Positions 5,887 through 44,603 of a DNA stretch of 48,275 nucleotides are shown here, one piece after another. This stretch comes from Candidatus Omnitrophota bacterium (GTDB lineage: Bacteria; Omnitrophota; Gorgyraeia; Gygaellales; Profunditerraquicolaceae): contig JAZDLL010000014.1 in assembly GCA_043802105.1 (NCBI GenBank), positions 1-48,275 on the forward strand. Reading direction: 5' to 3'. A program made the position numbers and the translations under genes. The first letter of the stretch is position 1. Every line of letters begins with the position of its first letter. The notes beneath the pieces were generated by a model. The model worked only from the letters and a program-made list of their open reading frames with translations, made no database searches and was not told the DNA's origin.

Positions 5887-6330
5887 TTATTTGATAGCAT
5901 ACTTAAGCCATAGTTCTTGAATTTCTTCCCTGTGTCTTTTAGTATCTTGTTCTATCTTAGCAAAAGCATTCTTAATAGTGGGTGAATCACTAGGTATAAC
6001 TTTAAAAAAATATCTCTCAATTAAACTATGCTCGATGTCTCTAGCCATAGATAAAGCATTTATTAAAGTGGAGTTTTCAGCCTTTTGTATTAAATCCTTT
6101 ACAAAAGACATTGTAAGCTCTATGGCCTCTATACTAAATCTATCTTCTTGAAAAAAAGAAGGAGTTTCTTGCTTTATTAACCGCACACTTTCTAATAATT
6201 CAGCGTGTACGTTCTCCTCGGCTGCTTTTTGGAGCCAAAATTCCTTCACTTCAGGAAATTTCTCAGCGTAGATAGTATACAATTTACTAACTAATCTCTC
6301 GTTTTCACTTAACAATCTTAGGCTATCCAT
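5887..6330 (-). CDS. Ferritin-like / rubrerythrin-like four-helix-bundle protein (tentative)
   Basis: 147 aa, predicted all-helical. It has EENVHAE and RDIEHSLIE motifs reminiscent of the ExxH diiron ligands of the ferritin-like superfamily. RBS AAAAGGGG lies upstream of the ATG. Confidence 0.45.
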   Translation of the reverse strand: MDSLRLLSENERLVSKLYTIYAEKFPEVKEFWLQKAAEENVHAELLESVRLIKQETPSFFQEDRFSIEAIELTMSFVKDLIQKAENSTLINALSMARDIEHSLIERYFFKVIPSDSPTIKNAFAKIEQDTKRHREEIQELWLKYAIK

Positions 6331-6456
6331 CGCTACCCCTTTTCTTCTAAACTGAATCTTTTGTTATTTTACCACAAATCCAAAGATTTTACAGTGCTAA
6401 GTAACCATGCGGGACTCCTGAGAATACTAAAATTTACAGATCTAGAGAAGCTGTGG

Positions 6457-32168: not shown

Positions 32169-33554
32169 TTATTTTTTATTTAATTGTTTGCTCCATCTGC
32201 CTAACTGCCCGGCCACCAGCTTAGGATTAGTACTGCCGTAAGAAGATTTCAGATTTACCGAAGCCCAAGCATTCAGGATATTTCTGAGGTCCGGGGTAAG
32301 CTTATCCGAATATTTTTTAAGCTGGCTATTGGATAAACCGGATATTTTCTTACCCTTATCCAAACAATCAACCACCATCGAGCCTACAATATCGTGCGCT
32401 CTGCGGTAGGAGAGACCTTTCTTGATCAAATATTCCACAATATCCACTGAAAACAAAGATTCATCTTTGACCTTGCTGGCCAGGGCCTCTTTTTCAATTA
32501 CGATATTTCCAAATAGCGCCATAAAGATCTCTAAAATATCTTTCATCGTATCCACGGCATCAAAAAGCGGCGGTTTATCCAATTGTAAATCCCGATTATA
32601 AGATGACGGCAGCCCCTTCATTAGGATCATCACGCTGGATAGGTCCCCATGGATTTTGCCGACCGAACCCCGGATCAGTTCTAAAATATCGGGATTCTTT
32701 TTATGCGGCATAATGCTTGAGCCGGTGCAAAAAGAAAAATCAATATCGATAAAATTAAATTCATGCGTGCTCCAGAGAATCAGATCCTCGGCAATCCGCG
32801 ACAAATGCACAGAAAGTATGGTCAAAGCAGACAGTGTTTCCAAAATAAAATCCCGGTCACTGACGCTATCAATACTGTTGGCGGTCAGGGTGGCAAACTT
32901 TAGTTCTTTTCTGACAAACTCCCGGTCAATGGGTAAACCCGTACCGGAGAATGCGCCAGCGCCCAAAGGCATCGCGTCAATCCGTTGTTTAGCACCTAGG
33001 AGGCGAGCTTTATCTCTTTCCAAACCCTCGATATAACTTAACAAGTGGTGGCTCATCAATACCGGCTGAGCAATTTGCAGATGCGTATGGCCGGGGATAA
33101 TTACCTGGGTATTAAATTTAGCAAATTTCAGGATGGATTTTTGCAACCCAACAATACCCTGGGCCAACTCATCAATCTCGCTTTTTAAATACATCCTGAT
33201 ATCCAAAGCCACCTGATCATTGCGGGAACGCGCTGTGTGCAATTTATACGCCGGTTCTCCGATTTTCTTAACCAACAACTCCTGGATATTGGAATGGATA
33301 TCTTCAGCCCTCAGGTCAAATTTAAACTTACCGCTTTGCACATCTTTAAGCATCAGGTTTAAACCTTTAACTATCGCTTGAGCATCTTTAAGCGGAATAA
33401 TCTTCTGTTTACCCAGCATCTTGGCATGGGCAATACTGCCTAAAATATCATACTTAGCCAACCGTTGATCAAAAGCTATGGAAGAGGTAAATTTATCCGT
33501 AAGCGCGTGCGTTATTTTGCTAAATCTTGTACCCCACAATTTTTTTGCCATCAT
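32169..33554 (-). CDS. argH: Argininosuccinate lyase
   Basis: KLWGTRF...TARSRNDQVA...GHTHLQIAQP...GSSIMPHKKNPD (fumarate lyase signature). Confidence 0.95.
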   Translation of the reverse strand: MMAKKLWGTRFSKITHALTDKFTSSIAFDQRLAKYDILGSIAHAKMLGKQKIIPLKDAQAIVKGLNLMLKDVQSGKFKFDLRAEDIHSNIQELLVKKIGEPAYKLHTARSRNDQVALDIRMYLKSEIDELAQGIVGLQKSILKFAKFNTQVIIPGHTHLQIAQPVLMSHHLLSYIEGLERDKARLLGAKQRIDAMPLGAGAFSGTGLPIDREFVRKELKFATLTANSIDSVSDRDFILETLSALTILSVHLSRIAEDLILWSTHEFNFIDIDFSFCTGSSIMPHKKNPDILELIRGSVGKIHGDLSSVMILMKGLPSSYNRDLQLDKPPLFDAVDTMKDILEIFMALFGNIVIEKEALASKVKDESLFSVDIVEYLIKKGLSYRRAHDIVGSMVVDCLDKGKKISGLSNSQLKKYSDKLTPDLRNILNAWASVNLKSSYGSTNPKLVAGQLGRWSKQLNKK

Positions 33555-33584
33555 TCTCCTTATGAATAATTACAGAAAATTACT

Positions 33585-33658
33585 GTTTAAGCGGGTCCTG
33601 TCTTGGGTATTTTCTAGCGCTGACGCGCTGCGAAAACACCCAAGCCACCCGCTTAAAC
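33585..33658 (+). repeat. Family B hairpin element, copy B1
   Basis: The outer 12-bp stem GTTTAAGCGGGT / ACCCGCTTAAAC encloses an asymmetric internal loop (CCTGTC vs CC) and a long imperfect distal stem (TTGGGTATTTTCTAGCGC / GCGCTGCGAAAACACCCAA). It lies between the argG stop and the argH start. Confidence 0.65.
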
Positions 33659-33662
33659 ATCG

Positions 33663-34844
33663 TTATCTTTTGTAAGGCATCCCCCAAAGCTTAATGAATC
33701 CTTCTGCTAACTTCTGGTTAAATTTATCTTCTTTGCCATAAGTACTTAATTCTTTTTTATAAAGAGACTGTGAGGATTTTCTCCCCACGGCAACGCAGGT
33801 CCCTTTAGACAATCTTAATTTGATCGTGCCGCTGACAAACTTTTGAGTCTTATTAACGAAACCATCCAAAGCCTCTTTAAGGGCAGAAAACCACAAACCA
33901 TAATAAACCAGCTCCGCATATTTAAGGCTGATCATTTCCTTAAAATGCGCCAGTTCCCGATCCAGGACCAAAGTCTCCAATTCTTTATGTGCAGTATAAA
34001 GAATGGTGGCCGCCGGAGCTTCGTAAACCTCCCGGGACTTAATCCCCACCAGTCTATTTTCCACCATATCGGTCCTGCCCACTCCAAACTGTCCGCCTAC
34101 TTCATTCAAATGATTAATCAAATTTTTAATTTTAAATACCTTGCCGTCAATCTTGGTCGGTACGCCCCGGGCAAAAGTTATCTCAATATACCGGGGGTAA
34201 CTTACGGATTGCGTTGAGCTTTTAGTAATCAGATAGGCATCTTCCGGCGGCTCCTGCTCCAAATTCTCCAAGACCCCCGCCTCGATACTTATCCCCCAAA
34301 TATTACGGTCGATACTGTAGGGCTTCTTCTTAGTTACATCAATCGGAATATTATATTTTAATGCATATTCAATCTCTTCTTCCCGGGATTTAAACTCCCA
34401 CTCTCTAACCGGAGCAATAATCTCCAGCCGGGGATCGAGTATGCCTACCGCCACCTCCAAGCGCACCTGATCATTGCCTTTGCCTGTGCAGCCATGGGCA
34501 ACCGCCGTAGCTTTCTCTTTATGCGCAATTTGCACCAGATATTTAGCAATTAATGGCCGGCCTAATGCGGTGGCCAAAAGATATTTACCTTCATAAACCG
34601 CGTTAGCCTTTAAAGCCGGAATAATAAAATCATTAATAAATTCTTCCTGCAGGTCTCGGATATAAACTTTAGATGCCCCGGCCGCCAAAGCCCGCTTTTC
34701 AATGGCTTCAAAGTTTTCACCCTGCCCTAAGCCCTGGCCAAGATCCGCTACAAAACAGACCACTTCATAGCCTCTTTCTTTAAGCCAGCGCACAATGCAG
34801 GAGGTATCTAACCCGCCTGAATATGCCAATACCACTTTCTTCAT
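33663..34844 (-). CDS. argG: Argininosuccinate synthase
   Basis: KKVVLAYSGGLDTS (PP-loop), GCTGKGNDQVR and SIDRNIWG. Confidence 0.96.
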   Translation of the reverse strand: MKKVVLAYSGGLDTSCIVRWLKERGYEVVCFVADLGQGLGQGENFEAIEKRALAAGASKVYIRDLQEEFINDFIIPALKANAVYEGKYLLATALGRPLIAKYLVQIAHKEKATAVAHGCTGKGNDQVRLEVAVGILDPRLEIIAPVREWEFKSREEEIEYALKYNIPIDVTKKKPYSIDRNIWGISIEAGVLENLEQEPPEDAYLITKSSTQSVSYPRYIEITFARGVPTKIDGKVFKIKNLINHLNEVGGQFGVGRTDMVENRLVGIKSREVYEAPAATILYTAHKELETLVLDRELAHFKEMISLKYAELVYYGLWFSALKEALDGFVNKTQKFVSGTIKLRLSKGTCVAVGRKSSQSLYKKELSTYGKEDKFNQKLAEGFIKLWGMPYKR

Positions 34845-34876
34845 CTTTTCTCCTGATTTAAATAAAATTTATATTA

Positions 34877-34952
34877 GATTAACGGGTGGCTTGGGTGTTT
34901 TCGCGAGCCGCGTTAAAGCGCTAGAAAACACCCAAGACAGGACCCGTTAATC
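34877..34952 (-). repeat. Family B hairpin element, copy B2 (inverted relative to B1)
   Basis: The plus strand reads GATTAACGGGTGGCTTGGGTGTTTTCGCGAGCCGCGTTAAAGCGCTAGAAAACACCCAAGACAGGACCCGTTAATC, which is approximately the reverse complement of B1. It abuts the argF stop codon. Confidence 0.65.
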
Positions 34953-35900
34953 CTAACTTAATAGTTTTATTAAGATCGCCTTCTGCACGTGCATCCGGTT
35001 TTCTGCCTGATCAAAAACTACGGAGTTCTTACTATCCATAACCTCATCGGTTATCTCTTCGCCCCGATGCGCAGGCAAACAATGCATTACTAAAACCCCG
35101 GCCGCAGCGTTAGATAAAAGTTTAGCATTAATCTGAAAATCTTTAAAGGTAATTTTTCTTTTACTAATCTCCTCTTCCTGCCCCATGCTCGCCCAGACAT
35201 CCGTATAAACAATCTGAGCGCCATTTACTGCGCTTAACGGATCTTCGGTAATTTTTATCTGGCTGCCGGATTCTTTAGCCAGCTCTTTTGATTCTTTAAC
35301 TACTCCGGTATCCGGAGCGTATCCGGCAGGAGTAGCTACGGCAATGTTCATTCCGGTTTTGGCCGCCGCATATAGTAAAGAATTGCAAACATTATTCCCG
35401 TCACCAACATAAGCCAAGGTTAGGCCTTTGAGCTTACCCCCCACCTTTTTGGAGGGCTGATCTAGGCGTGAAAATTTTTCCCCGATGGTAAAAAGGTCAG
35501 CTAAGGCCTGGCAAGGATGCGAAAAGTCACTTAAACCATTAATTACCGGAACTCCTGCGGCCTGGGCCATATCCAAACAATTTTTATGATCAAAGGTTCT
35601 TAAAACAATCCCATCAACATACCGGGAGATGGTCTTAGCGGCATCTTTAATCGTTTCTCTCACCCCTAAATTAATCTCACTAGGTGACAAATAAATCGAA
35701 TTGCCCCCCAACTGATACATCCCAACCTCGAAAGATACCCGCGTTCTATTTGACGGCTTCTGAAAAATTAAAGCCAGGGTCTTACCGGCCAGAACCTTGT
35801 TAAATTTAGATTTATTCCTCTTCACTTTAATCGCCAGATCAAATAATTCCGCAATTTCCTGAGAAGTTAGGTCTTTAATCGAAATCAAATCTTTTTTCAT
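34953..35900 (-). CDS. argF: Ornithine carbamoyltransferase
   Basis: SNRTRVSFE, HPCQALAD and HCLPA motifs. I trimmed the start to the ATG at 35900 (RBS AAGGAGCGAAG). The 15-aa extension in the track is a read-through of a GC-rich repeat. Confidence 0.93.
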   Translation of the reverse strand: MKKDLISIKDLTSQEIAELFDLAIKVKRNKSKFNKVLAGKTLALIFQKPSNRTRVSFEVGMYQLGGNSIYLSPSEINLGVRETIKDAAKTISRYVDGIVLRTFDHKNCLDMAQAAGVPVINGLSDFSHPCQALADLFTIGEKFSRLDQPSKKVGGKLKGLTLAYVGDGNNVCNSLLYAAAKTGMNIAVATPAGYAPDTGVVKESKELAKESGSQIKITEDPLSAVNGAQIVYTDVWASMGQEEEISKRKITFKDFQINAKLLSNAAAGVLVMHCLPAHRGEEITDEVMDSKNSVVFDQAENRMHVQKAILIKLLS

Positions 35901-35950
35901 CTTCGCTCCTTGCCCACAAGGGCACACCGCCGCAATTTCCTCCACAGGGA

Positions 35951-43451: not shown

Positions 43452-43476
43452 ACTACTCCTCTGTTAAAACATTTAG

Positions 43477-43551
43477 ATTAGCGGGTGGCGATGACTGATT
43501 CCGAGGCCGGTAAATGCGGCCGAGGAACAGTCATCGACAGGACCCGCTAAT
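43477..43551 (-). repeat. Family B hairpin element, copy B3 (same ends, different distal stem)
   Basis: The plus strand reads ATTAGCGGGTGG-CGATGACTGATTCCGAGGCCG-GTAAATG-CGGCCGAGGAACAGTCATCG-ACAGGACCCGCTAAT. The GCGGGTGG...ACAGGACCCGC ends match B2, but the about 20-bp distal stem is unrelated in sequence and still pairs. It starts 2 nt after the leuB stop. Confidence 0.65.
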
Positions 43552-43553
43552 AG

Positions 43554-44603
43554 TTATAAATTTTTAACTACCAGGTCCCCGACTTCAGTAGTAGAGTAAC
43601 CCATTTTGCCGGCAGCCAGCGATTTTAAGTCTTTATTTACAATCCCGATTACCGCTTTTTCAATGGCTTGGGCTGCTTTTACCTCGCCTAAATTTTCCAG
43701 CATCATTCCGGCAGCGCAAATCGCAGCCAAAGGGTTAATTACATTTTTACCGGTATATTTCGGAGCGCTTCCACCGATGGGCTCAAACATGGAGACACCG
43801 TGCGGATTAATATTTCCTCCGGCAGCGATACCCATCCCACCCTGAATCATTGCCCCTAAATCCGTAATAATATCCCCAAATAAATTGTCTGTAACAATTA
43901 CATCAAACCATTCCGGATTCTTCACAAACCACATGGTGGTCGCATCAACATGGGCATAATCCGTGGTGACATCCGGATATTCCTTGGCTACTTCGTTAAA
44001 TGTCCGCTGCCAGAGATCCCAGGCATAAGTCAATACATTGGTTTTACCGCAAAGAGTCAGCTTTTTCTTTTTATTGCGCTGACGGGCACACTCAAAGGCG
44101 TAACGGATACAACGCTCCACTCCCTTGCGCGTATTATAAGAAATCTGAATCGCCACCTCTTGCGCCGTTCCCTTATCCTTAAACTCCCCCATACCTTTAT
44201 ATAGCCCTTCGGAATTCTCACGCACTACCACAAAATCAATATCTTCCGGCCGCTTGTCTTTTAAAGGGCAATACGCAGAGTTATAAAGCTTAACCGGCCG
44301 CAGGTTGATATACTGATCAAGAGCAAACCTTAGCTTAAGCAATACTCCTGTTTCGATAATCCCGGGTTTTACATCAGGATCCCCCACCGCACCGAGATAA
44401 ATGGCATTATATTTCTTTAATTCCTCAACATCATTGTCATCGACAAGCTTGCCAGTCTTCAAATACCGCTTACCGCTGAAATCAAAACTCTTAGTCTCAT
44501 ATTTAAAACCGAATTTTTTACCGGCAACTGCCAAAACTTTTAAACCTTCATTAACTACTTCTGGTCCGGTACCGTCACCCGGTATTACTGCGATTTTGTA
44601 CAT
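43554..44603 (-). CDS. leuB: 3-isopropylmalate dehydrogenase family (isocitrate/isopropylmalate/tartrate dehydrogenase superfamily)
   Basis: [33 protein letters not shown] and [13 protein letters not shown] trimmed the start to the ATG at 44603; the track start at 44615 is TTG. The leuB assignment rests on the leuCD context. Confidence 0.8.

Follow-up and report, generated by a model that had tools for sequence, protein, structure and literature searches.

Inverted hairpins on either side of argG in a Candidatus Omnitrophota genome as likely members of a structure-defined interspersed repeat

The window, by which we mean the whole stretch of 48,275 nucleotides that was analysed, carries the arginine genes argF, argG and argH on its minus strand, with a hairpin in each of the two gaps between them (B2 and B1, in the order of transcription) and a third, related hairpin (B3) elsewhere. 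The features are as follows.
34953..35945, minus strand: argF, ornithine carbamoyltransferase (TIGR00658, 419 bits), the gene upstream of B2
34877-34952 (covariance-model limits 34872..34957), minus strand: hairpin B2, in the argF-argG gap (model R1, 92.5 bits)
34850..34854, minus strand: Shine-Dalgarno sequence AGGAG of argG, found by sequence inspection, outside B2 and about 17 nt 3' of the hairpin in the mRNA
33663..34844, minus strand: argG, argininosuccinate synthase (NF001770, 579 bits), between B2 and B1
33585-33658 (covariance-model limits 33581..33662), plus strand: hairpin B1, in the argG-argH gap (model R1, 89.9 bits)
32169..33554, minus strand: argH, argininosuccinate lyase (TIGR00838, 535 bits), the gene downstream of B1
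43471..43557, minus strand: hairpin B3, between a putative leuB-like gene and asd (model R1, 66.4 bits)

B1 and B2 are inverted copies, about 90% identical, of a hairpin of about 80 nt. An earlier sequence-only reading of this DNA had described them as reverse complements that fold into hairpins and fill both arg gaps, and all three statements were confirmed. The complementary arms match over 30 nt at 97% and over 22 nt at 100%, and BLAST aligns the two copies at 89-91% identity across 64-74 nt with a single 4-nt indel at the apex; about 27 nt are left ahead of each next start codon. Whichever strand is folded, each copy forms a single long hairpin (-43 to -50 kcal/mol, z = -7 to -10) that none of 200 shuffles equalled, with -45.4 kcal/mol on the plus strand and -50.0 kcal/mol on the minus strand for B1 (z about -9.8) and -43 kcal/mol for B2 (z -7 to -8). 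In the fold, a basal stem of 12-13 bp leads through an asymmetric internal loop to a distal stem of 13 bp topped by a small apical hairpin; on its CCTGTC strand, the internal loop reads as a 3-nt CCT bulge followed by a G-C pair, a T.C mismatch and a C-G pair. The bulge-bearing strand, which we call F, is the plus strand in B1 (5'-GTTTAAGC GGGTCCTGTC...GCCACCC GCTTAAAC) and the minus strand in B2; because the arg mRNA corresponds to the minus strand, it contains the reverse (R) form of B1 and the F form of B2. The outer stems are site-specific, TTTAAGC/GCTTAAA in B1 and TTAGGATTAAC/GTTAATCTAA in B2, and the argF stop codon TAG (34953-34955) lies inside the 5' arm of the latter.

No match to B1 or B2 was found in Rfam 15, either in a gathering scan of the whole window or in a permissive scan of the region, where the best chance match reached 24 bits against a threshold of 82. 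One tRNA and one TPP riboswitch were the only Rfam matches in the window. A K-turn reading of the 3-nt bulge was rejected, as the sequence of both strands lacks the tandem G.A pairs after the bulge. Our scan for promoter-like or terminator-like sites at B1 and B2 returned none. On either strand the foot has an A-rich 3' arm, no U-tract directly follows the GC-rich stem, the hairpin has no terminator tail, and the next ribosome-binding site is left free.

The same element recurs well beyond the arg genes. In the genome to which the window belongs (a MAG of 1.13 Mb, 85% complete), family B occupies 17 loci on 14 contigs, several of them at contig ends and all of them intergenic; the B1/B2 sequence itself is present at 15 other loci of unrelated function, as expected of a dispersed family. 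Within the genus, matches were found in 31 of 36 sampled genomes, with 1 to 47 per genome when both strands are counted. All 67 stretches with canonical copies come from Candidatus Omnitrophota MAGs, and the viral contigs that were searched contained no copy. Most canonical copies lie between co-directional genes (54 of 62, comprising 34 F and 20 R, counts that include many orthologues and hence are not independent events), about two thirds of these sitting 1-30 nt past the upstream stop; convergent and divergent gene pairs account for four each. Orientation relative to transcription is 7:7 in the window's own genome. As a measure of replication-strand bias, GC skew was taken along the F strand and is positive for 51 of 80 copies; this proportion equals that of the transcription bias, so the two are confounded. 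A search for a recurrent neighbour gene found only housekeeping clusters next to family-B copies, and in the literature we found no paper connecting Omnitrophota with REP-type repeats. Complete genomes of Omnitrophota, 176 in number, have been reported (bioRxiv 10.64898/2026.06.07.730766).

Each family-B copy consists of three parts. At the foot is an AT-rich, site-specific outer stem of 5-9 bp; next comes a bulged base that is invariant (C-GGGT-[CCT]-G-T-C ... G-C-C-ACCC-G), and beyond it lies a distal hairpin that varies in sequence and is always paired. Covariation was seen at 13 of 26 pairs among 15 own-genome copies. Across 100 matches, 94% of cells pair, compared with 23-47% when the partners are slid, and double changes occur at 19 of 26 pairs; none of 500 shuffles reached the observed values. 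The asymmetric features of the core are equally constrained. Among 119 distinct copies, apex and bulge share one relative orientation by 84:0, and the A.C mismatch outnumbers its reverse, G.T, by 82:1; of 100 aligned matches, 78 have the A.C mismatch, whatever the direction of transcription. The three asymmetric marks of the core therefore stay linked, and the core behaves as one indivisible unit, an observation new in this work. Bacteria of the other families of the order retain only the bulged base, CGGGTCCTGTC...GCCACCCG, which in them encloses distal parts of 14-90 nt. B3 has the bulged base of B1 and B2 (GCGGGTCCTGTC...GCCACCCGC) with a different, fully paired distal stem, and this sub-type was also found at G000:C23:2348-2434.

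Comparison of the argFGH junctions among relatives revealed how the element behaves over time. Depending on the species, a gap is empty, contains the element whole or partly deleted, or holds a hairpin of another family; a search for such presence/absence polymorphism had been proposed by the sequence-only reading. Orthologues of B2 in the F orientation were found in six genomes (G026, G024, G010, G022, G030 and G008) and remnants at the B2 site in three (G009, G013 and G062). At the gap orthologous to that of B1, the core is inverted in G034, G018 and G024, whereas the flanks are the same. Between G000 and G034, for example, the right flank of this second gap matches at 34 of 40 positions in the same orientation, while the core matches at 54 of 59 as the reverse complement against 43 of 62 directly; mixed core orientation within one conserved outer stem was seen at at least five orthologous sites. 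Family B is therefore spread through the genus and passed on at orthologous sites; its copies appear in intergenic gaps, disappear from them and decay there, and operons tolerate them. A host function would also fit the long retention at orthologous sites and the order-wide conservation of the base.

Also new in this work are the homogenisation of cores within genomes and the finding that one conserved outer stem may enclose the core facing either way. The apical edit distance is 3.27 within genomes and 5.09 between genomes, and none of 2000 shuffles was as low. The copies seen in G018, including both of those flanking argG, share a 22-nt insert, and the other G018 matches among those listed have an equal length of 102-104 nt. 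Neither the argFGH gaps nor the G000-specific C73 site, where the gap of each relative holds a different hairpin family, provided a clean filled-versus-empty pair that fixes the insertion boundaries. Target-site duplications of the MITE type, a check proposed at the outset, were not found: there is no excess of odd-length direct repeats at any offset, and the excess of even-length ones arises because the foot is palindromic.

The idea that the inverted pair makes argG a composite or MITE-bounded unit found no support in this comparison. The gene is present in 40 of 41 genus genomes, and the argF-argG-argH order is constant in all 30 genus loci inspected (scoring only the flanking genes present on the fetched contig), with the gaps empty or filled; argG is a core gene, not cargo. 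Around argG the two copies are oriented F,R in the window, R,F in G018 and F,F in G024, and individual cores are found flipped in place. Because the pair orientation varies, the bracketing of argG is a coincidence, and the inverted arrangement has no meaning of its own. The sequence-only reading had rated a DNA-level origin at least as likely as an orientation-specific RNA function, and the DNA-level origin is the better fit to an element that is dispersed, present or absent at the junctions of relatives and found in both orientations.

Among the known systems closest to family B are the REPINs and REP-BIMEs of Pseudomonas and Enterobacteria, which are associated with RAYT (TnpA-REP) transposases; in REPINs, conserved ends in inverted orientation enclose a variable spacer that folds into a hairpin and shows compensatory changes, and the target site is not duplicated (PMC3116915). 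Like them, family B is short, palindromic and extragenic, with tens of copies; a spacer constrained only to form a hairpin separates two conserved, inverted end modules, inheritance is vertical, with retention at orthologous sites and tolerance inside operons, and target-site duplication is lacking. It differs in that its arms (CGGGTCCTGTCTTGGGT...) are not self-complementary and so are not REP palindromes, in that its foot sequences differ from site to site and include no GTAG-type tetranucleotide, in its absence within about 250 nt to 1.5 kb of all 43 RAYT/TnpA loci inspected, and in its asymmetric base (the CCT bulge and two fixed mismatches), its site-specific outer stem and its inverted whole cores. 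Like family B, the ERIC/IRU elements of enterobacteria are imperfect palindromes of about 70-127 bp that occur only in transcribed intergenic regions and in either orientation, with high conservation between species, internal insertions at fixed points and presence/absence at orthologous sites; TA duplications have been reported for them in Yersinia. To our knowledge, no transposase is known for ERIC and in-place core inversion has not been described. Family B is unrelated to ERIC in sequence, belongs to a different phylum and lacks target-site duplications. Like family B, MITEs such as Correia in Neisseria and RUP in Streptococcus are gene-less, fold into hairpins between inverted termini, lie near gene ends and are co-transcribed. 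MITEs also duplicate their target site and have a parent insertion sequence whose ends match their own; for family B, no such duplication was found, nor any same-ended parent in the 2 Mb of sequence scanned. The attC sites of integrons are recognised by structure more than by sequence; like family B, they form hairpins with a variable terminal structure in which extrahelical bases distinguish one strand from the other, and they follow stop codons. Their outermost R boxes are conserved and their interior is variable, and they bound cassettes in one-way arrays next to intI. In family B, by contrast, the inner base is the conserved part and the outer stem is variable (TTTAGC/GCTAAA, TTTTGC/GCAAAA, TTTTAC/GTAAAA and similar, with a GTT start in only some), and copies are dispersed over 14 contigs in both orientations. 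In non-coding chloroplast DNA, as in family B, segments between short inverted repeats flip recurrently at orthologous sites, with any loop and any stem. In family B the apical loop is fixed relative to the bulge and only the whole core flips relative to the flanks; this suggests that a specific process acts at the core's base, and it speaks against generic hairpin-mediated inversion.

The search for a mobilising enzyme gave no partner. The reported lack of a transposase or RAYT-like gene in the window held for Y1 transposases and extends to the whole of its assembly, which is 85% complete (HMM search and tblastn of 13 proteins). Y1_Tnp genes are present in 45 of 47 other genus genomes, at 1-8 per genome. 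None of the 33 genus RAYT/TnpA genes whose flanks were read has a B base motif within 250 nt, each having its own type of flanking hairpin, and ten further RAYT/TnpA loci from bacteria of other families have no B copy within about 1.5 kb; the count thus stands at 0 of 43 loci within about 250 nt to 1.5 kb, its strength limited by MAG incompleteness. The nearest case, G024:C47, has two B copies 0.3-0.8 kb away with other genes intervening. G040, which is 94% complete, contains 11 family-B matches, several with near-identical stems and base, and no Y1 gene. A RAYT acting in trans is possible and finds no support here. A GIY-YIG nuclease was rejected as a partner, with a weak copy about 410 nt away at only 1 of 22 loci, and a scan of 2 Mb of sequence gave no copy split around a gene.

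On balance, we lean towards regarding B1 and B2 as ordinary copies of an interspersed repeat of Candidatus Omnitrophota that contains no gene and is defined by its structure. In this view the repeat is a REP/REPIN-like DNA element that is non-autonomous, and a putative structure-specific enzyme acts on its bulged base. The hairpin would be recognised through this base, as folded single-stranded or cruciform DNA, by a nuclease or recombinase that may copy, swap or re-insert whole cores at existing stems. By analogy with E. coli REPs, which act in mRNA as stability or processing barriers, the hairpins in the arg mRNA probably serve as such barriers between cistrons as a by-product. We offer more tentatively the idea of a RAYT-independent hairpin 'cassette', in which the order-wide bulged base would be where the putative enzyme recognises and cleaves the element, whole cores would be exchanged or re-inserted, facing either way, into fixed site-specific docking stems, and hairpins would border accessory-gene inserts in some lineages. 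A cassette of this new kind would account for asymmetries that stay linked, for cores that flip in place and are homogenised genome by genome, and for the absent target-site duplications.

Rather unlikely, in our judgement, is the proposal that the hairpins are host-selected cis-acting RNA modules (stabilisers, barriers to 3'-exonucleases or RNase III-type sites) that uncouple argF, argG and argH, with dispersal being secondary. The very stable hairpins in co-directional pairs, mostly 1-30 nt after the stop, the free ribosome-binding site, the missing terminator tail, the strong covariation of stem pairs and the retention of hairpins in orthologous gaps across species with ArgG 89-96% identical all agree with it. 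However, the element is used in both orientations (34:20, and evenly in its own genome) and flips at the same orthologous sites, so that the transcript has either a CCU bulge and an A.C mismatch or an AGG bulge and a G.U pair; the asymmetric marks track the element rather than the direction of transcription, copies also lie between convergent and divergent genes, the same gaps lack the element in many relatives, and a plain double-stranded RNA function leaves the order-wide invariant bulged base unexplained. The proposal that the gaps are argG-specific regulatory leaders or attenuators, conserved because they sense arginine status, has next to no credibility: hairpins do lie directly upstream of argG and argH, likewise in several relatives, but the 15 unrelated own-genome loci have the same sequence, at least eight relatives lack the element in the same gaps, its orientation depends on the species and no Rfam family matches it. 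The genome-wide census refutes it.

It is improbable, although less so than an arginine-sensing leader, that family B is a classical REPIN population whose cognate RAYT (a Y1 HUH transposase) was left unassembled or unsampled. MAGs often lose repeat-flanked genes, Y1_Tnp genes abound in the genus, where other hairpin families flank their own RAYT genes, and the layout agrees with published REPINs (PMC3116915). Set against this are the 43 RAYT/TnpA loci without a nearby B base motif, the 11 matches in G040 at 94% completeness with no Y1 gene, the arms that are not REP palindromes, the foot without a GTAG-type tetranucleotide, and the differences in open-frame length and profile span of the match among B-bearing single-RAYT genomes. 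We give still less weight to the idea that the elements resemble attC and serve as structure-specific recombination sites at the borders of exchangeable gene cassettes, which generalises the bracketed argG unit of the sequence-only reading. The extrahelical bases near the hairpin base, the variable terminal structure and the position right after the stop are reminiscent of such sites; in G043, two inverted B-like copies surround a cassette of a STAND-NTPase and a gene of unknown function, and a third lies at the edge of a series of small ORFs of unknown function; in five genomes argH has been swapped at the argG junction for a homologue of 44% identity. Nevertheless, family-B copies are scattered among core operons in mixed orientation rather than arrayed, their outer stems do not fit RYYYAAC/GTTRRRY boxes, the argFGH order is invariant with or without elements, and a conserved centre with variable ends is the reverse of attC.

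The uncultured Omnitrophota have small, tightly packed genomes, yet these hold several hairpin-repeat families and many domesticated Y1 transposases. Family B is distinctive among them in that its partner enzyme is missing and its indivisible cores flip and homogenise inside fixed stems. We read this pattern as the trace left by a site- or structure-specific DNA reaction, which long-read population data could capture directly. The hairpins also have practical consequences, as they break MAG assemblies at contig ends and are open to misreading as riboswitch-like leaders or operon regulators, an error that the family model prevents. If these hairpins also shape mRNA decay in biosynthetic operons, they would provide streamlined genomes with a cheap means of tuning gene ratios.

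B1 and B2, the two inverted family-B hairpin copies beside argG, are mutually reverse complementary at 33585-33658 and 34877-34952 when the region is read directly, and the sequence-only reading proved accurate on their pairing, their folds and their position in both arg gaps. The repeat finder recovered 30-nt arms that are 97% complementary and 22-nt arms that are 100% complementary, BLAST gave 89-91% identity, and the pairwise alignment placed the single 4-nt indel between the copies at the apex. On either strand each copy forms one long hairpin of -43 to -50 kcal/mol (z between -7 and -10); out of 200 shuffles, not one folds equally well. All genes, identified with NCBIfam equivalog models as argB, argD, argF, argG, argH and lysA, are on the minus strand, and the coordinates put B2 in the argF-argG gap (gap 1) and B1 in the argG-argH gap (gap 2):

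32169-33554, minus strand, argH
33585-33658, B1, gap 2
33663-34844, minus strand, argG
34877-34952, B2, gap 1
34953-35945, minus strand, argF
43471-43557, B3, the third family-B copy in the window
argB, argD and lysA, minus strand

The outer stem of B2 contains the argF stop codon, and about 27 nt, including the Shine-Dalgarno sequence, are left free ahead of the start codon that follows each copy. The promoter/terminator scan reported neither signal at B1 or B2, on both strands the 3' arm of the outer stem is rich in A, the reverse of a terminator tail, and no Rfam family matches the hairpins.

The genome-wide count proposed in the sequence-only reading showed that the family is not unique to the arg gaps. 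BLAST, nhmmer and a covariance model from 15 copies found 17 good loci on 14 contigs of the source assembly (1.13 Mb, 120 contigs, 43% G+C, 85% complete); because several lie 150 nt or less from a contig end, the true copy number is probably higher. RNAalifold gave 26 pairs, and compensatory double changes occur in 13. In 100 model matches from many genomes, aligned by fitting to the covariance model and with some rows reverse-strand, 94% of cells pair, compared with 23-47% when partners are slid by 1-3 columns, and double changes occur in 19 of the 26 pairs; no shuffle of 500 reaches the observed values. All genomes compared are MAGs, and copy counts throughout are not independent, as many copies are orthologous. 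Described on the strand that reads 5'-GGGTCCTG (F; its reverse is R), a copy has four parts:

outer stem, or foot: mostly 5-9 bp, AT-rich, variable between sites yet paired (TTTAGC/GCTAAA, TTTTGC/GCAAAA, TTTTAC/GTAAAA, ATTAAC/GTTAAT, GGATAAY/RTTATCY)
invariant base: C-GGGT paired with ACCC-G, then a CCT bulge, a G-C pair, a T.C mismatch and a C-G pair
distal stem: 13 bp with a fixed A.C mismatch, a position unpaired in 78 of 100 rows
apical hairpin: small

On the opposite strand the same positions give an AGG bulge, a G.A mismatch and a G.T wobble, so that strand folds somewhat better. Model matches occur in 31 of 36 sampled genus species (1-47 per genome, both strands counted) and in four genomes from three other families of the order, where the base module alone survives and the distal parts vary between a 7-bp stem capped by a triloop and branched structures about 90 nt long. 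An exact-pattern scan of the genomes of about 186,000 species returned 67 stretches, every one in a lake or groundwater MAG of Candidatus Omnitrophota (some of these MAGs were submitted as Planctomycetales); no viral contig carried a copy.

Of 41 genus genomes, 40 yielded an ArgG, and in the 30 loci fetched argF lies upstream and argH downstream wherever present on the contig. Comparison of these junctions, as the sequence-only reading had suggested, revealed gaps that are empty, filled, reduced to remnants or replaced. Gap 1 is empty (10-25 nt) in eight genomes, holds an F-orientation copy in seven (one degenerate, two with a different distal stem) and an R-orientation copy in one or two, and keeps only ...GCGGGTCCTGT in three; in the relative G012 an R-side stub ...AGCGGGTGG adjoins another hairpin, and other genomes hold hairpin families unrelated to family B. 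Gap 2 shows the same variety. The pair around argG, given as gap 1 then gap 2, is F,R in the source genome, R,F in G018 and F,F in G024, and the inverted layout in the window is one of several equally frequent configurations. Family B is therefore not a leader specific to argG, nor does it bound a mobile argG unit, and the earlier picture of argG as a composite or MITE-bounded unit is not upheld, gaps and pair orientation varying around a constant gene order. The gene after argG is about 44% identical to the window ArgH in G012, G029, G024, G062 and G064 (loci L015, L017, L021, L033 and L036) and 77-91% identical in other relatives; from this comparison, argH seems to have been replaced in those five genomes by a distant homologue exactly at the hairpin-filled junction.

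The core, that is, everything inside the foot, behaves differently from its site. In gap 2 it is R in the source genome and F in G034; the 40 nt to its right match at 34 of 40 positions in the same orientation, and the two cores match at 54 of 59 positions as reverse complements versus 43 of 62 directly. With copies grouped by orthologous neighbour genes, at least five orthologous sites combine the same foot with mixed core orientations:

argG-argH gap
phosphorylase-like/MtnA-like gap
downstream of an lpxB-like gene
511-aa/320-aa gap
site on contig C55

Thus, the foot belongs to the site and is stable through speciation, and the core turns over. Apical edit distance is 3.27 within genomes versus 5.09 between them, a value as low in none of 2,000 label shuffles. 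In G018, the copies seen, among them the two that flank the orthologous argG (contig C21; L018 831-932 and 2128-2229), have a palindromic 22-nt insert at the apex, GCCTGCCTGCCGGCAGGCAGGC, and further listed G018 matches have the same length of 102-104 nt; this is either concerted evolution or a sub-family particular to that species. When 119 distinct copies are oriented by their bulge, apex polarity is the same in 84 and opposite in none, and the A.C mismatch outnumbers the reverse G.T by 82:1, so that the three asymmetric marks of the core stay together. If generic hairpin-mediated inversion were at work, or gene conversion ending at arbitrary points in the palindrome, the apex alone would often be flipped, and no such flip was seen; this absence points to a process acting on the whole core at the foot-core junction.

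Among the 62 canonical copies that could be classified, 54 are flanked by co-directional genes (the mRNA carries the F strand in 34 and its reverse in 20), four by convergent and four by divergent genes; the source genome has seven F, seven R and two convergent. About two thirds of the co-directional copies begin 1-30 nt past the upstream stop codon, a placement that an RNA-level host role as the primary function could accommodate. Because orientations interchange at one site and the marks ignore transcription direction, however, the base is most simply seen as something recognised in folded DNA rather than in RNA, and we consider a primary RNA role unlikely. A GC-skew test for replication-strand bias was confounded with gene orientation. 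The neighbouring genes are ordinary biosynthetic or housekeeping genes, and no accessory or transposase-like gene recurs among them. A cassette boundary of the attC kind, which the inverted pair around argG might recall, appears very improbable. One source locus, in which a 351-aa MtnA-like gene comes after a family-B copy, was assembled twice with a few flank differences (C91:1-2483 and C69:5700-6961); either the bin mixes strains or the duplication is genuine.

Family B resembles REP/REPIN/ERIC-type repeats in form and habits (PMC3116915). However, a REPIN is defined by a cognate RAYT, none of which was found for family B, and by REP-type arms with a GTAG tag, which the family-B arms lack; a MITE is defined by a target-site duplication and a parent insertion sequence, and neither was found for family B. 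Both kinds of sign had been singled out beforehand: target-site duplications were looked for at the copies and none is present, and no RAYT or IS200 gene occurs in the source assembly (85% complete). Y1_Tnp genes number 1-8 per genome in 45 of 47 other genus genomes. Among 33 such loci inspected in the genus and 10 in other families, each RAYT clade is flanked by its own hairpin type wherever flanks were read (GGGACGGTTCT..., CCTACGTAGACC..., GGGGACAGCTACC..., GTTATCCACAGAGTAG...), the GGGACGGTTCT... type also occupying the arg gaps of G017, G012 and G029, and the family-B base motif is absent from all 43 within about 250 nt to 1.5 kb. In the nearest case (G024:C47), a RAYT gene with its own GTAG-type hairpins lies between two B copies, other genes intervening. 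In single-Y1 genomes bearing B, the Y1 matches differ in open-frame length and profile span, and G040, 94% complete, has no Y1 gene but 11 B-like matches, several of them near-identical in stems and base. A conventional REPIN with an unsampled RAYT is decidedly improbable in our view. Among 22 loci of small GIY-YIG nuclease genes, one had a weak copy about 410 nt away and the others none, and no copy split by an inserted gene was found in 2 Mb of sequence.

Many genus RAYT genes share a conserved upstream leader, GTTAGATTT...CTGCGTC...TTATAGTAGGAGG (L156, L167, L149, L153, L157, L150 and L161, from G012, G018, G024 and G029), possibly serving as a shared promoter, 5'-UTR or regulatory site. 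At G024:C7, about 43960-44110 (L056 7960-8110), IS200-type ends without tnpA lie between two family-B copies, and an intact IS200-like tnpA with the same ends lies 5 kb upstream (L043). The distal stem of the source copy C113:579-697 holds a complete nested hairpin of another repeat family, GCACCCCGCGC...GCGCGGGTGTCC, indicating that one hairpin element inserted into another; its motif has 41 matches in the source genome, and its appearance suggests that it may be the 'family A' of the sequence-only reading. In G043:C2:22954-25429, two inverted B-like long hairpins (L147 3955-4071, plus; 6313-6430, minus) surround a 2.2-kb cassette that adjoins pgk; its products are an NTPase of the nSTAND1 type and an unknown protein of 175 aa. 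After cysS there is a third copy, at the edge of a series of small unknown ORFs. The C73 gap of the source genome (L169 740-1230) and its counterparts (L175-L179) hold a different hairpin family in each of five close species (family B, GGGGACGGTTCT, GTAGGGGAGGTTTAAACCTCCCCTAC once or twice, GACGCTGTTGATAA); a sixth, G026, has no such hairpin, and a conserved terminator-like hairpin stands beside this position in G000 (the source), G018 and G026. No clean empty-site comparison was obtained, as intergenic gaps evolve too fast.

On balance, we lean towards family B being a non-autonomous DNA element, in which a putative structure-specific enzyme would copy or exchange whole cores at existing stems. 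In the arg mRNA the hairpins would probably also serve as barriers that affect stability or processing.
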